A DNA stretch of 64,000 nt from IMG/VR virus record IMGVR_UViG_3300030387_000070; one strand, 5' to 3'. Each line of letters begins with the position of its first letter. Position 1 is the first letter of the stretch. The notes below the pieces were generated by a model that worked only from the letters and a program-made list of their open reading frames with translations, was not told where the DNA came from and made no database searches. The position numbers and the translations under genes were made by a program. The stretch comes from a virus. Shown piece after piece: positions 4,655 through 23,011 of the stretch.

Positions 4655-5137
4655 ATGGCTATCGTAAATGGATTTGATACTCAGAAACTGCGGTATATCC
4701 TCTTTGGTGATAAAGGCTATGAGATATACAAGGAAAACGATTTTTACTACCTAAGTAATGGATATGGTTATAAGTATGATGAGAAAGATGGTTGGTCTGA
4801 TTCTGATATTACAATGCTCCACAAATATTTTGAATATGTAAATCCTAGTTGTTGTTCATATTGGGAAAAATTTCATGATATAAAAGAGTTTAGACGAATC
4901 TACTATCAAGAAAACCGAGATGGTTGTTTGTACACTTATCCGTGTATTGTTTGCGAGATGGACAATAGAAATAAGGCTTTACTAAATGAGAAGTATACAA
5001 ACATTCTAGCAAAAGCGAAAAAGTGGGGTTGGTTTGCAGAGTGTAAGGATAGTTTAAGCTGCGTTCACTTTATGAATAAACAGAACACTCTTGAAGCATG
5101 GATTTGTCCGATTCGTTACAAAGAAGGTGCTATCTAA
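4655..5137 (+). CDS. hypothetical Cys-rich protein
   Basis: RBS GAGGAA upstream. Confidence 0.4.
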   Translation: MAIVNGFDTQKLRYILFGDKGYEIYKENDFYYLSNGYGYKYDEKDGWSDSDITMLHKYFEYVNPSCCSYWEKFHDIKEFRRIYYQENRDGCLYTYPCIVCEMDNRNKALLNEKYTNILAKAKKWGWFAECKDSLSCVHFMNKQNTLEAWICPIRYKEGAI

Positions 5138-19001: not shown

Positions 19002-19086
19002 GCCAAGGTGCTGCAAATGGGAGACAGGGCGAGCCCAAACCTCGCTGTGGAAACACATGCGGTTTCGAATACCGTCCTTGGCACCA
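19002..19086 (+). tRNA. tRNA-Leu(CAA), type II, CCA encoded
   Basis: Hand-folded: acceptor GCCAAGG/CCTTGGC, U8, T-loop TTCGAAT, long variable arm, anticodon loop CCCAAAC with an unusual C33, discriminator A73. Confidence 0.55.
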
Positions 19087-19114
19087 GATAATTTTATGAA
19101 GAAAGGATGATTGC

Positions 19115-19798
19115 ATGGTTAATAGGGCAGAAGATCATATTGGTGATGTCTTTGATTTGTTTGAGGTGATTGATGTTATTCGAGATGAAAATAATATTCC
19201 ATCTTACAAATGTCGATGTAAAGAATGTGGATGGACAGGGCTAAAAAATATAGCTCAGGCGAGAGCGGTTAAAGTGTGTCGGCATAAACAATCGAGTGGC
19301 GATTATAGAAATTTTTCTACACGGTGGAAAAACAAAAGAATCGGACGAATCTTTCATGGAATGAAAGCAAGATGCTATGATGTTGATGATAAAAACTATA
19401 TAACGTATGGCATGAAAGGAATTTGTGTTTATCAAGAATGGTTGGATAATCCAAAGTCATTTGAAGAGTGGTCGTTGAAAAATGGATACAAAGATAGTTT
19501 GACAATCGATAGAATTGATTCGACAAAAGATTACTGTCCTGATAATTGCAGATGGATATCATTGGAAGATAATTCAAAATATAAATCCACAACTCGAATG
19601 TTAGAAGTAGATGGTGAAATACATACGGGACGTGATTGGGCGGCAGAATTAGGGCTTGGAACAAACACGATAAATAAATATGTAAGAAGATACGGAGAAG
19701 ATAATACAAAACAATTTATAAGAAGAGTATTAAAGGACCCGGATAAAGTGAATTCTCGACAAGGGAAACAAACTATCTATAATCTTTACATGAACTAA
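19115..19798 (+). CDS. HNH homing endonuclease (HNH_3-type)
   Basis: HNH signature IDRIDSTKDYCPDNCRWISLEDN; low GC relative to neighbours; sits between tRNA genes. Confidence 0.55.
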   Translation: MVNRAEDHIGDVFDLFEVIDVIRDENNIPSYKCRCKECGWTGLKNIAQARAVKVCRHKQSSGDYRNFSTRWKNKRIGRIFHGMKARCYDVDDKNYITYGMKGICVYQEWLDNPKSFEEWSLKNGYKDSLTIDRIDSTKDYCPDNCRWISLEDNSKYKSTTRMLEVDGEIHTGRDWAAELGLGTNTINKYVRRYGEDNTKQFIRRVLKDPDKVNSRQGKQTIYNLYMN

Positions 19799-19805
19799 AT
19801 TGAAA

Positions 19806-19847
19806 TGGCCCAGTGTAAAAACTGAGTACATTGGGCCAAATATTTAT
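19806..19847 (+). terminator. rho-independent terminator (TGGCCCA...TGGGCCA plus AT-rich tail)
   Basis: 7-bp inverted repeat at 19806-19812 and 19832-19838 after the HNH gene. Confidence 0.45.
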
Positions 19848-19851
19848 ATGA

Positions 19852-19935
19852 GCACCCGTGGTGAAATTGGCAACCACGATGGACTTAAAATCCATTCCCG
19901 GTAACGGGTTGCGAGTCCGAGTCTCGCCGGGTGCA
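19852..19935 (+). tRNA. tRNA-Leu(TAA), type II
   Basis: Acceptor GCACCCG/CGGGTGC, anticodon loop CTTAAAA, 15-nt variable arm, A73. Confidence 0.65.
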
Positions 19936-19940
19936 TATTT

Positions 19941-20016
19941 CTGGGCGTAGCGAAGTTGGCATCGCACCTGTTTTGGGAACAGGGGACCGCAAGTTCAAAT
20001 CTTGTCGCTCAGACCA
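19941..20016 (+). tRNA. tRNA-Pro(TGG), CCA encoded
   Basis: Anticodon loop TTTGGGA, T-loop TTCAAAT, acceptor with one G-U pair, ends ACCA. Confidence 0.65.
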
Positions 20017-20023
20017 CTACGAG

Positions 20024-20111
20024 GATTCGCCAAGTTGGTAAGGCAGCGGAATTTGACTCCGCCAGCGCTGAACAAGCGGTCACAGGTTCGAGTCCTGTAT
20101 CCTCGGCTTAT
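20024..20111 (+). tRNA. anomalous type-II tRNA with anticodon TTG (Ser-like G73 body)
   Basis: Acceptor CGAGGAT/ATCCTCG, U8, D-arm GCC-AAGTTGGTAA-GGC, anticodon arm GCGGA-ATTTGAC-TCCGC, 19-nt variable arm, T-loop TTCGAGT, discriminator G. Confidence 0.45.
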
Positions 20112-20113
20112 AT

Positions 20114-20198
20114 GCGGGTATGGTGTAACTGGCAGCCACGTCAGATTTAGGATCTGATGCCGAAAGGCGTGAGGGATCGTGCCCCTCTACCCGTACCA
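20114..20198 (+). tRNA. tRNA-Leu(TAG), type II, CCA encoded
   Basis: Anticodon arm TCAGA-TTTAGGA-TCTGA, 13-nt variable arm, A73, CCA present. Confidence 0.6.
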
Positions 20199-20298
20199 CG
20201 GTCATAGAATGGTTGCGTACCGTTTGTTGATCTCCTTTACTATTATTCCCGGCTCGCCAGTGATGGTGCAGTAGTGCTTTGTAAGCTGGGTTTTCATG

Positions 20299-20372
20299 CA
20301 GCGGTCGTACAACGGCTAGTACATCAGCCTTCCAAGCTGAGGATGAGGTTTCGACTACCTTTCGCTGCTCCA
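20299..20372 (+). tRNA. tRNA-Gly(TCC), CCA encoded
   Basis: Acceptor GCAGCGG/TCGCTGC, anticodon loop CTTCCAA, T-loop TTCGACT, ends TCCA. Confidence 0.6.
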
Positions 20373-20560
20373 ATCTTGTATGGGTAGGATCTTTAGCGGT
20401 CAGATCCAGCCGCGCCTGTGCAAGATACCACCCCGAAAGGGGCGAGATATAGGAAATGTGCATCGCTGTTATTCCTTCCTCGTCTATATGATATAGATGC
20501 AATAGTGTTTTATAAGGAAGGTCCCCAGTTGAATAGTTGCAGCTGTTTGACTGGTAATAT

Positions 20561-20634
20561 GGGATAGTAGCTCAGTTGGTCAGAGCTGGCGGCTCATAAC
20601 CGCTTGGTCGCGAGTTCAAATCTTGCCTGTCCCA
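20561..20634 (+). tRNA. tRNA-Met(CAT), elongator-like
   Basis: Acceptor GGGATAG, D-arm GCTC-AGTTGGTCA-GAGC, anticodon loop CTCATAA, T-loop TTCAAAT; the 1-72 pair is formed, so not an initiator. Confidence 0.6.
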
Positions 20635-20742
20635 CTAACCCGATAGGGTGAATACATAGAATTTGCTAGAAATTTTGTTTTATGGGCGAATAAATAATAT
20701 GACGTTGATACGTCTATTATTTTTCGCTAATTTTTAAAGTTT

Positions 20743-20763
20743 TAGCTATGTAACACAGGATAC
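20743..20763 (+). promoter_or_regulatory. 21-bp promoter-associated motif, direct variant TAGCTATGTAACACAGGATAC
   Basis: Motif copy 3 nt before the AAAGGAGG RBS of the methyltransferase N-terminal part. Confidence 0.45.
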
Positions 20764-20780
20764 GAAAAGGAGGTGGTTTG

Positions 20781-21503
20781 GTGAAACATTATGGAAGTAT
20801 TTGCGAGATTGATGGTTCTAAGATTGAGCCTGTCTCGTGTATCACTGGTGGTTCACCTTGTTAGCCAAGACCTTTCTATTGCCGGCAAGCGGGCAGGTTT
20901 GGCTGGAGAACGGTCTGGTCTATTTATGGAAATGATTCGTGTGATAAAGGAGATGAGGGAGGCCACCAATGGAGAGTATCCAAAATTTGCAATCTGGGAA
21001 AACGTCCCAGGAGCCTTCTCTTCCAACAAAGGAGAAGACTTTAGATGTGTCTTGGAAGAATTTGCACGCATTGTCGAACCAAGTGTTTCAGTTCCTCGAC
21101 CTTCGGGAAGAGAATGTAAGTGGGCAAAAGCTGGAGCAATCGCCGGAAACGGATGGTCCTTGGCGTGGAGATTATTCGACGCTAGTGGTTGGGGTGTTCC
21201 CCAGCGTAGAAAACGTCTCGCGCTTGTCATGGACCTTAGAGGACAATGTGCCGGAAAAGTATTATTTGAGCAAACGGGCGTGTCAGGGGATCTTGATAAG
21301 AGCGTCAAGACGTGGAAAACCATTGCCCGACCTTCTGAAGGATGCACTGCAGGAGATGATTCATTGGTGGGAGATGAAAGATCCTACACTTTGAAGATTC
21401 GTTCTGGCTGCGCAGGGGGGGTAAAGGAGCACTCGTGCAGAATGAATTGAGTGCGACTCTCTCCACTTTGCAAGATCAGACTTTGTTCTGTGTAAAGCAT
21501 TAA
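20781..21503 (+). pseudogene. N-terminal part of a DNA (cytosine-5) methyltransferase (motifs IV, VI, VIII) split across three reading frames
   Basis: GTG 20781 after AAAGGAGG. Frame 0 reads VKHYGSICEIDGSKIEPVSCITGGSPC then TAG at 20853-20855. Frame 1 continues (S)QDLSIAGKR...ENVPG...QRRKRLALV...SYTLKIRSGCAGG. At the G7 run 21415-21421, frame 0 reads GKGALVQNELSATLSTLQDQTLFCVKH and stops at TAA 21501. Confidence 0.55.
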
Positions 21504-21515
21504 GGAGGGAACGGA

Positions 21516-22262
21516 TTGGAAAAAGAAACCAGTTTACATAATTTAAAACAAAATATTTCCACAGCGGTATTTGAAAGCCATAGTCAGGATGCTCGATACA
21601 CTCAGCAAGGTAATACAAGCCCAGCTTGTACAGCTCAATGGGGTACTGGTGGTAATAATATGCCGCTTGTCGCTGAAAAGAAAGCCTTTGCTATGCAGCG
21701 TATTGGCGAATATAAGGAAAGCGAACAGGCCAGCACAATGAAATCTCGTGATTATAAAGATGCAACTGATCTTGTAGTTGAAGAGAAAGAGGTGAAATGT
21801 GCTGGGTTTCCACTTGGATTTAGAGCAGAAAATACGAAATGCTACGATGAAGTGGCTACTACGCTTTGCAATGGTACGCGGCCTGGATTTACTACTGGAT
21901 GTGTTCTCAATTGGATTGTTCGCCGCTTGACTCCTGTTGAGTGTGAACGGTTACAGGGTTTTCCTGATGGATGGACCGATATTGGCGAGTGGGTTGACGA
22001 AAATGGTAAAAAGCACAAGCCAGCCGATTCTCCTCGGTACAAGGCGCTCGGCAATTCGATTGCTTTGCCTCAGTGGTATTGGATTTGCCAGAAGATGAAA
22101 CCGTATATTGGTGAAAATCCTACGCTTGGCAGTCTTTTCGATGGAATCGGTGGCTTTCCGCTTGTCTTTGAAAGTACGTATGGTGATGGTACTGCTATCT
22201 GGGGATCTGAAATTGAATCGTTTTGTGTTGCGGTGACAAAGAAGCATTTTCCAGAAGACTAA
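21516..22262 (+). CDS. C-terminal part of a C5 methyltransferase (TRD, motif IX, motif X) fused to MTase motifs I and II
   Basis: RBS AAGGAGG 7 nt before TTG 21516. Contains RRLTPVECERLQGFPDGWT (motif IX), YKALGNSIALP (motif X), then SLFDGIGGFPL (motif I) and WGSEIE (motif II) before the stop. Confidence 0.55.
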   Translation: MEKETSLHNLKQNISTAVFESHSQDARYTQQGNTSPACTAQWGTGGNNMPLVAEKKAFAMQRIGEYKESEQASTMKSRDYKDATDLVVEEKEVKCAGFPLGFRAENTKCYDEVATTLCNGTRPGFTTGCVLNWIVRRLTPVECERLQGFPDGWTDIGEWVDENGKKHKPADSPRYKALGNSIALPQWYWICQKMKPYIGENPTLGSLFDGIGGFPLVFESTYGDGTAIWGSEIESFCVAVTKKHFPED

Positions 22263-22299
22263 ATCTCATAAAAGGCTAATTCAAATAAGAGGTGACACG

Positions 22300-22506
22300 A
22301 TGAACAGCAAATTTCCTATCAATGCAACCATCGACCCCGGCTCTTTGAATATTCCGGCAAGTCCTATCTTCCAAAAGGAAAAGAATACATATCTTTGTCC
22401 GTTTTGTGTGACGAAGCTGGAGAAGTTCGAGCGTGAATGTTCTGATTGTCATCGCAAGATGGATTGGAGTAGGTTTACTGAAAAGAAGGAGGAGATGTTC
22501 ACTTGA
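22300..22506 (+). CDS. zinc-ribbon small protein
   Basis: RBS AAGAGGTG upstream; CPFC...CSDC. Confidence 0.35.
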   Translation: MNSKFPINATIDPGSLNIPASPIFQKEKNTYLCPFCVTKLEKFERECSDCHRKMDWSRFTEKKEEMFT

Positions 22507-22781
22507 ATATAGATTTCTTCCAACGGCGCAAGACTCAGCTTGAAGATACGCTTCTTTTGAAAAATCAGGCGGTCGATATGCTTGATTATTTAAAGACACA
22601 TTGTATCAACAGCGACCAGTATTGTGCTATTCGAGACTACATTGAAGAAGCTGCGAAGATTCTGGAGAGTGACCTCGAATACGCAAACAACAAGTTGCAG
22701 TCCGCATTCAGACCTAAGTATGGTCGGAATAACAGATTAACTCGTGCTCAATCTAAGATGTTCCGTGATAGAGAATATTAA
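22503..22781 (+). CDS. hypothetical protein
   Basis: TTG start overlapping the upstream stop, preceded by AAGGAGGAG. Confidence 0.35.
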   Translation: MNIDFFQRRKTQLEDTLLLKNQAVDMLDYLKTHCINSDQYCAIRDYIEEAAKILESDLEYANNKLQSAFRPKYGRNNRLTRAQSKMFRDREY

Positions 22782-22798
22782 AAATGGGGTGATGCCAT

Positions 22799-23011
22799 AT
22801 GAACACATGCAAGAAAATATGTAACTGGTGTGGTCGTGAAATCAAGCCGATAGGTAGCGAGCAGGGAATCAGTTTTGAGCATCAATACTCTTATGGTAGC
22901 CAACTTGATGGTTCACTTTTGAGTTTTGATTTGTGTCCTGAGTGTTCAGAACGGTTCCCAGTAGTGCTCGGCGCAATGTTTATACATAATCCATTAAAGG
23001 ACGATTTCTAA
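22799..23011 (+). CDS. zinc-ribbon small protein
   Basis: CNWCG...CPEC. Confidence 0.35.
   Translation: MNTCKKICNWCGREIKPIGSEQGISFEHQYSYGSQLDGSLLSFDLCPECSERFPVVLGAMFIHNPLKDDF

Follow-up and report, generated by a model that had tools for sequence, protein, structure and literature searches.

A predicted circularly permuted cytosine-C5 methyltransferase in two phage genes, with a putative +1 recoding site, a probable switch at a poly-G tract and an embedded reading frame

The window analysed here, a 64,000-nt stretch of the IMG/VR virus record IMGVR_UViG_3300030387_000070, carries at positions 20781-22262 of the plus strand what its motifs and homologues indicate is a circularly permuted phage cytosine-C5 DNA methyltransferase (C5-MTase), with the motif order III-IV-VI-VIII-target recognition domain (TRD)-IX-X-I-II. 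The break of the permutation is placed between motifs II and III, the topology known as "Type B", and the product would be expected to transfer a methyl group from S-adenosylmethionine (AdoMet) to the C5 position of cytosine. We consider it likely that the locus is a natural Type B C5-MTase encoded in two genes, alpha and beta, with a +1 recoding site, a poly-G switch and an embedded open reading frame (ORF), here called ORF B. As far as sequence comparison can tell, it is neither a pseudogene, nor a sequencing artefact, nor the remnant of a duplication.

Motifs I, IV, VI, VIII, IX and X of C5-MTases are all present, the PC and the Q of motif IV being parted by a TAG plus one nucleotide, and the Pfam profile PF00145, proposed as a check in an earlier note on this DNA, matches both the first (E 1e-15) and the second half (E 5e-10). 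The intact relative P0099 aligns with M.HhaI in four blocks: residues 4-88 with 58-135 (motif III, GDITQV in M.HhaI, then IV and VI), 128-148 with 149-169 (VIII), 312-335 with 267-290 (IX), and 387-428 with 16-55 (I-II). Since residue 4 of P0099 corresponds to residue 58 of M.HhaI and residue 428 to residue 55, the termini lie between motif II and motif III. Within the window, the counterpart of GDITQV is KHYGSICEI, and the first segment of alpha corresponds via P0099 to residues 58-81 of M.HhaI. Furthermore, the end of beta (..TKKHFPED*) followed by the start of alpha (VKHYGSICEI) matches the continuous ..RMPEVKHLGD.. of the normal-order enzyme of Javan108. The protein thus starts at motif III, ends just past motif II and has motif X joined to motif I. 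The earlier note had described an order of IV to X followed by I-II, fused in frame and unlike both M.BssHII-type and plant DRM-type enzymes, and the homologues and the M.HhaI alignment bear this out; it had set the break between III and IV, which has to be moved because the N-terminal KHYGSICEI is motif III. Two known orders were considered and rejected. In the locus, IX and X stand behind VIII and the TRD, I-II being the only motifs displaced, which does not agree with the Type H (M.BssHII-like) order, and III, IV and VI are N-terminal, which does not agree with the DRM-type order (VI-X, then I-V).

The permuted arrangement is shared by a large family. All of the best 120 database matches to beta have motif X followed by I-II, ending in ..AVTKKHFPE, and intact permuted proteins in a single frame are found among the relatives (e.g. 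P0099, 429 aa, and P0058). A scan of IMG/VR yielded at least 567 confirmed relatives, and the full-length permuted homologues that the earlier note had wanted sought do exist: in 77 of the best 80 IMG/VR loci the whole permuted gene stands in one frame, encoding 390-557 aa. Two cultured phages of Faecalibacterium, FP_Toutatis and Lelie, share the permuted order. When the 64-kb window was searched by tblastn with an intact relative, three collinear pieces alone were returned and none upstream of 20781, where the earlier note had allowed that motifs I-III might stand in normal order. The note's alternative of a tandem-duplication remnant fails because no motif has a second copy. Duplication is nevertheless the likely historical origin: under the established model, tandem duplication and in-frame fusion would have produced the permuted gene, and the internal Met retained in the linker between X and I (QKMKPYIGENPTLGSLF) fits such a fusion. 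According to the REBASE survey of Slaska-Kiss et al. in 2018, all natural permuted C5-MTases are broken in the variable region, and no natural enzyme has the Type B topology, although engineered Type B permutants were the most active topology made (PMC5944983). We found no report of a natural Type B C5-MTase in the later literature. On the evidence of motif order, this phage family is the natural Type B class missing from that survey.

Alpha (20781-21503) comprises motifs III-VIII and the first module of the variable region, and it is read on the plus strand, like the other parts of the locus. Its ribosome-binding site, AAGGAGGTG, lies at 20767-20775 and its GTG start codon at 20781-20783. The first segment, in frame 0 (20781-20861), consists of the 27 codons VKHYGSICEIDGSKIEPVSCITGGSPC, which take in motif III as well as half of motif IV, its first, and end with the catalytic Cys codon TGT (20859-20861). 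There follows an in-frame TAG (20862-20864) within the sequence GGT GGT TCA CCT TGT TAG C CAA (20847-20868), and reading resumes in frame +1 at AGC 20863 or CAA 20866. The second segment (20863-21420) reads (S)QDLSIAGKR...ENVPG (VI)...QRRKRLALV (VIII)...SYTLKIRSGCAGG, with ENV at 20998-21006 and QRRKR at 21202-21216, both in the +1 frame. It runs into an out-of-frame tract of seven G (G7, 21415-21421), behind which the third segment (21420-21503), again in frame 0, reads GKGALVQNELSATLSTLQDQTLFCVKH and ends with TAA (21501-21503). The 248-aa product of beta (21516-22262, stop codon 22260-22262) holds the remainder of the variable region, motif IX (21921-21977), motif X (22038-22070), the linker QKMKPYIGENPT, motif I (22131-22163) and motif II (22200-22217).

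The TAG had been given as 20853-20855 in the earlier note, 9 nt from its actual place, all other coordinates of the note being right. The note's view that the frames are fragmented there holds as far as the need for a +1 shift goes, but compared with Toutatis and Lelie the lesion is a 4-nt insertion, TGT|TAGC|CAA, and its conservation had been missed. TGT TAG C is identical in L085-L093, that is, in eight assemblies encoding exactly the 248-aa protein and in the more divergent L093. The pattern TGY TAG C CAR GAY matched 62 IMG/VR contigs, and the fetched loci contain at least 148 TAG sites, always TGT TAG, followed by A (n = 83), C (n = 62) or T (n = 3). Variants with TGC, TAA, TGA, TGG or TAGG were absent from all 148 sites among the matches listed, and most of these loci have an upstream frame opening with a GTG that precedes the TAG by exactly 27 codons. 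At the 84 unique sites the fourth base is mostly A (47) or C (34), seldom T (3) and never G; A and C would make for weak termination.

Both frames flanking the stop codon are under purifying selection in divergent homologues, frame 0 before the TAG and frame +1 after it. The 27 upstream codons differ between the window and L093 by 8 nt changes, 7 being synonymous if read in frame 0 and 7 non-synonymous if read in frame +1. In the 84 unique segments, the entropies of the three codon positions are 0.53, 0.35 and 1.14 upstream (frame 0) and 0.47, 0.31 and 1.36 downstream (frame +1); the variable codon position changes phase at the TAG, indicating that the coding phase switches there. The 15 nt upstream of the TAG are frozen even at synonymous positions (TGT in 84, TCA in 81 and CCT in 78 of the 84), whereas 72 relatives without the TAG vary freely, with TGT in 39 and TGC in 33, mostly AGY for Ser, and three Pro codons. 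Proteins with the TAG site share pairwise identities down to 50%, with about four changes of state on a tree, and the site is also present in L151, an enzyme of normal order, in the genome of an Oscillibacter isolate and in metagenome-assembled genomes of Oscillospiraceae. In Oscillibacter sp. 1-3 (L246, NZ_KE159710.1, approximately 5053-5079), TGT TAG C stands in a prophage-like MTase gene that is truncated soon past motif VI.

Judged by this conservation, TGT-TAG is a +1 recoding site, and we infer a programmed +1 event at UGU-UAG-N that competes with termination by release factor 1 (RF1). Ribosomes would pause at the poorly terminated UAG, and a fraction would proceed in the +1 frame to give PC-S-QDLS, with Ser or Arg in this place depending on the lineage; such recoding could keep the output of the enzyme low or dependent on RF1. 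The invariant TGT allows only a G:U wobble in the zero frame. Two further candidates were rejected: a hairpin of 4 bp (GGTG/CACC) located upstream of the TAG would be within the ribosome, and its few variants do not covary, and hopping in the style of T4 gene 60 has no in-frame matching landing codon.

An unlikely alternative would leave the 27 N-terminal codons unjoined and start the protein at ATG 20791 (MEVFARLMV...QDLS...); lacking the catalytic Cys, it would be a non-catalytic DNA-binding or regulatory protein, or recoding would give an enzyme of altered chemistry. An ORF does run from 20791 to 21450, gene callers report such proteins (e.g. P0114), and the +1 product would have a distorted PCQ motif. 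However, the +1 frame is not conserved before the TAG, where it accumulates the non-synonymous changes noted above between the window and L093 and has its entropy peak at the second codon position, and frame 0 keeps motif III/IV and the fixed GTG in divergent lineages.

The second interruption of the permuted gene is a cassette at 21501-21518, in which the TAA overlaps an AAGGAGG (21502-21508) and is followed by TTG 21516. Sister lineages are uninterrupted here (..QDQTLICLADNTSLHN..), whereas the lineage of the window has about 24 extra nucleotides (..TTCTGTGTAAAGCATTAAGGAGGGAACGGATTGGAAAAAGAAACC..) that supply a stop, a consensus Shine-Dalgarno (SD) sequence and a TTG, all in the same frame. 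The earlier note had recorded the TAA ahead of the TTG, which is indeed present, but the two share a frame, so that this is an in-frame stop and restart and not a shift. All close assemblies have the cassette and the sister lineages lack it, and exactly the same 248-aa beta product occurs in 50 collection blocks, on contigs of 55-160 kb. In L092, which has an in-frame G8 and retains the TGT-TAG site, the ORF in the methyltransferase frame (frame A) is unbroken from the ATG equivalent to window position 20791 to the TAA (237 aa), with beta directly next to it. By its conservation, TAA-SD-TTG is a fixed cassette that divides the gene in two, giving two polypeptides, each with its own start codon, that are parted in the variable region and jointly hold all motifs; alpha and beta would then assemble into one enzyme. 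Among the three alternatives of the earlier note, a two-polypeptide permuted MTase with a switchable first gene came closest.

The proposed switch is the poly-G tract. The G7 run described in the earlier note as needing a -1 shift is present in the sequence, and either such a shift or one more G joins the +1 frame to ..GKGALVQNELSATLSTLQDQTLFCVKH; the conserved ..AGGGKGALV.. would be regained, too, if the P site slipped by -1 on GGG GGG G. Relatives read GGAGGCGGG at this position. The tract of the window was found in 20 contigs with lengths of G6 (n = 1), G7 (n = 10), G8 (n = 5), G9 (n = 1), G10 (n = 2) and G11 (n = 1), of which only G8 and G11 are in frame. Toutatis (G9) and Lelie (G14) differ at another tract, between motifs VI and VIII (approximately position 2660 in L001/L002), which is in frame only at G10 or G13, and therefore GenBank lists two MTase coding sequences (CDS) for one phage and a truncated "hypothetical protein" for the other. 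Homopolymers of at least 7 nt across 244 loci are always of G and fall into two hot spots, approximately at positions 100-120 and 180-207 of P0099, and several tracts of the family are polymorphic in length (7/8, 8/9 and 9/14). A tract inside an ORF thus varies between independent samples, with alleles both in and out of frame, and it is probably a phase switch of the contingency type. The G7 of the window would be the OFF state of such an ON/OFF switch, and full-length alpha would require two events, the +1 recoding at UGU-UAG-C and either a G8 allele or a -1 slip.

That the locus is instead a decaying pseudogene, a once-functional permuted MTase that acquired an insertion of 4 nt, a deletion of 1 nt and a nonsense mutation and has ceased to be expressed, is very unlikely. 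Three disruptions within 1.5 kb, one of them inside the catalytic PCQ, would suit decay, as would the out-of-frame G7 being the commonest consensus. Against it, the TAG insertion is kept at 50% identity with purifying selection on both flanking frames (the same finding speaks against the word "decayed" in the earlier note), a consensus SD and a start codon accompany the TAA, the 248-aa product does not vary across its collection blocks, and in-frame G8 and G11 alleles exist. We regard it as highly improbable that the TAG is read as an amino acid, through an alternative code or a phage suppressor tRNA, in place of a frameshift. TAG-recoded gut phages exist, Gln at the TAG would restore P-C-Q, and a block of seven tRNAs lies directly upstream. 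Yet the frame would still be off by one past the TAG (CCAAGAC), the window encodes no tRNA with a CUA anticodon, TAG serves as an ordinary stop in the window, where it ends 22 of 118 long ORFs and a sense reading adds little coding coverage, and many of the phages with the TAG site are 35-60 kb contigs of other lineages. Sequencing or assembly indels in a normal single-ORF gene, also raised in the earlier note, are scarcely credible: G runs are error-prone and the isolates Toutatis and Lelie differ only in G-run length at the break, but TGT TAG C and the TAA cassette are identical across studies and assemblers (in at least nine independent assemblies), the TAG recurs in at least 148 loci and TGT TAG C also in a cultured isolate genome, and a 4-nt insertion and a 24-nt cassette are atypical of sequencing errors, which explain at most part of the poly-G variation.

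The embedded reading frame is ORF B (20955-21394), which overlaps motifs VI-VIII in the frame +1 to that of the MTase, with GAGGGAGG at 20955-20962, an ATG at 20969, 141 codons, the conserved tail LSWTLEDNVPEKYYLSKRACQGILIRASRRGKPLPDLLKDAL and a TGA at 21392-21394. Its peptide has tblastn matches in 137 phage records, and in Vibrio CP-T1 gp12, Streptococcus Javan108, P1 dmt, Mycobacterium Porcelain and Sinorhizobium NV1.1.1 the match is always +1 to the annotated MTase frame; counterparts lie at 2159-2650 in L242 (P1 dmt), 1315-1710 in L084, 1264-1725 in L083 and 1135-1614 in L243. Each of the 78 loci tested has a +1 frame that stays open over 135-222 codons, starting at a fixed ATG, and a +2 frame open for only 9-86. 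In 72 unique intact genes, the third-position entropy falls from about 0.9-1.1 to 0.3-0.55 from the ATG of ORF B onward, and past motif VIII the pattern is inverted (position 1, 0.9-1.1; position 3, 0.16-0.28), which points to selection on frame B in that part. Over the same 93 nt in eight distant phages, identity amounts to 65% in frame B, 33% in the MTase frame, 28% in the +2 frame and 59% for nucleotides. EMR uses AGG for its Arg in 62 of 92 segments, compared to 13% gene-wide, which maintains a GAGG upstream of the +1 ATG. Frame B is therefore under purifying selection beyond the constraint of the main frame.

Neither Pfam, NCBIfam nor a sequence profile search of the PDB gave a match for ORF B, a fold search against the PDB returned nothing better than E 3, and PHROGs gave one weak match, to a 139-position "DNA methyltransferase" profile. 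An AlphaFold2 model of ORF B reaches a predicted local distance difference test score (pLDDT) of about 90 only in a C-terminal helical hairpin, and the first ~90 residues look disordered. Of the 4196 cluster representatives that match ORF B, many are stand-alone "hypothetical proteins" and many others are ORFs of 250-620 aa in which B is followed by TRD-IX-X(-I-II), an overlapped alpha/beta arrangement. A motif GQ[LMV]S[LIM]F(D) occurs at residues 3-11 in 54 of 120 diverse representatives (1.8% in shuffled controls) and resembles the beta-clamp-binding consensus QL[SD]LF; the ORF B of the window (MESIQNLQSGK) is without the GQ[LM]S[LI]FD motif. We found no overlapping ORF or frameshift described for phage C5-MTases or P1 dmt in the literature. 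Given the selection on its frame, ORF B is probably translated from its own ATG, its hairpin probably works with the enzyme, and it may be a subunit acting in trans.

Poly-G tracts and frame B also meet elsewhere in the family. At a second tract (..DRGGxSY..), an extra G fuses frame B to the downstream TRD-IX-X-I-II, as seen in P0023-P0034, P0265 and P0255 with the contexts GACGTGATA-Gn-CAATTCCTA and TCCGCATCA-Gn-CTGTGACGG, and other database ORFs run from frame A through B into the downstream part. With both frames open, an indel yields a long ORF rather than a truncation.

Several points weigh against the overall explanation. The AlphaFold2 model of P0099, built on an alignment of eight sequences, has a pLDDT of 39 and is unusable for the fold or the active site. 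At the recoding site, tRNA-Cys (GCA) on UGU cannot re-pair with GUU in the +1 frame, so that the shift cannot be classical slippage; +1 shifting without slippage, the Ty3-like mechanism, would fit a UGU site. Between the SD-like GGUGGU and the shift codon the distance is 6-7 nt, compared to 3 nt in prfB. In the simple +1 product, a Ser (or, in other lineages, an Arg) parts the catalytic Cys from the conserved Gln, and catalysis might suffer as a result. The out-of-frame G7 is the commonest consensus at its tract, so that the enzyme may be off in most populations, and miscounting of G runs by assemblers may lie behind part of the poly-G variation. Finally, the depletion of stop codons in frame B is modest per locus when synonymous codons are shuffled (p 0.0005-0.08), which is why the length of ORF B is not relied on.

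A more far-reaching reading, which we put forward tentatively and hold to be doubtful in its entirety, joins these layers. In it, ORF B would be an ancient and so far unrecognised overlapping gene found throughout a clade of phage C5-MTases that extends from P1 dmt to phages of the gut, Vibrio, Streptococcus and Mycobacterium, and its hairpin (KYYLSxxACxGILxRAxxRGKxLPxxLxxAL) would serve as a module of the enzyme's small domain, in trans or, in beta-type genes, linked in cis. The N-terminal GQ[LM]S[LI]FD motif would be a clamp tether that holds methylation at the replication fork, the counterpart in bacterial viruses of DNMT1-PCNA. UGU-UAG-N would represent a new, non-slippery and RF1-sensitive +1 signal, with poly-G tracts toggling the combinations of reading frames, and the locus as a whole would be a multi-layer recoding hub controlling the methylation of phage DNA.

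The seven-tRNA block upstream of the MTase extends over 19002-20635. One of its tRNAs (20020-20107, plus strand) is unusual in combining a long variable arm (class II, 87-88 nt) with a UUG (Gln) anticodon according to ARAGORN (Rfam, 51.7 bits). The block also contains an ORF for an HNH-type endonuclease (19115-19798, plus strand, 227 aa). Close relatives have different HNH/NUMOD4 ORFs elsewhere in the block (L086, 1677-2153; L090, 1750-2154), or none, which suggests that these ORFs are mobile homing-endonuclease insertions. In the beta relative P0003, an in-frame insert of ~176 aa with a helix-turn-helix and an HNH_3 domain separates ..ERLQGFP from GWTDIGEW in motif IX; candidates for it are an intein-less homing-endonuclease insertion and an intron that the gene caller has read through. 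Downstream of the MTase (22300-23011, plus strand), two ORFs of 68 and 70 aa each encode paired CxxC motifs and look zinc-ribbon-like. A scan of 20500-22600 for promoters and terminators found none above the expectation from shuffled sequence, save a small hairpin at 20701-20714, and megablast of 24 kb of the window against the phages of GenBank found no related phage.

The apparent non-use of the Type B topology in nature surprised the protein engineers (PMC5944983). Its abundance in gut phages offers natural enzymes with which ideas on AdoMet affinity and domain evolution can be tested, among them the 2018 prediction that affinity is lowered in Type B enzymes. The site at the catalytic cysteine is a possible new class of +1 signal, with a non-slippery UGU in the P site and a UAG stop kept at 50% identity; if it is one, phages could throttle or time an orphan methyltransferase through it. 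The apparently broken MTase genes in hundreds of phage contigs (e.g. those of Toutatis, Lelie and the mycobacteriophage Porcelain) would be mis-annotations and not pseudogenes, and, since ORF B is also found in P1, the overlapping gene is directly testable in a tractable model.

Compared to known systems, the locus shares with the engineered Type B permutants (PMC5944983) an N-terminus between motifs II and III and the joining of X to I, but it belongs to a large natural phage family and has a variable region of several modules and features of recoding. In Type H enzymes (M.BssHII, M.Alw26I, M2.Eco31I, M.Esp3I and M2.BsaI), X likewise precedes I in one polypeptide. Their break lies in the variable region, giving IX-X-I-VIII (PMC5944983). 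Here, it lies between II and III, so that both structural domains are cut differently. Among split enzymes, M.AquI is a C5-MTase divided in the variable region. The closest precedent for ORF B is M.EcoHK31I, whose alpha gene contains, in a different frame, the sequence for a beta chain that supplies motif IX (PMC2836561). The present locus resembles these two in having two polypeptides split in the variable region and a second protein in an alternative frame. Unlike the beta chain of M.EcoHK31I, ORF B carries no canonical motif, overlaps VI-VIII and not the variable region, and accompanies an MTase frame that already has all ten motifs. Many relatives have a beta-type ORF with TRD-IX-X whose N-terminus is formed by B, a further likeness to these split enzymes.

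The closest parallel for the TAG site is prfB, which encodes release factor 2 through a programmed +1 frameshift at CUU UGA C with an SD-like element 3 nt away. Both have an in-frame stop and conservation of both frames, and a weak fourth base (C or A) and a purine-rich SD-like element upstream may be further likenesses; in the phage genes, however, the stop is UAG, which is read by RF1, the UGU in the P site cannot re-pair, and the spacing is 6-7 nt. As an MTase is not a release factor, an autoregulatory logic is not evident here. The poly-G tract has a counterpart in bacterial phasevarions, in which poly-G/C tracts occur in type III N6-adenine modification genes (PMC3711429). The G tract likewise varies within an MTase ORF and toggles its frame, but the enzyme is an orphan C5-MTase of phages and the variation is between isolates. 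Finally, the normal-order C5 domain of P1 Dmt and the enzymes of the Javan phages and CP-T1 (gp12) share GSPCQDLS, WENVPGAFSS, WGVPQRRRR, RRLTPxECERLQGFPD and ORF B with the permuted family, but theirs is a single polypeptide in the canonical order I-X and, in the examples examined, there is no TAG site. In Mycobacterium Porcelain (gp116/gp117, L243, 966-2166), the annotation of a normal-order MTase consists of two overlapping CDS, one of which, the second, is in the +1 frame and contains IX-X, and this pair may be another split or frameshifted member of the clade.

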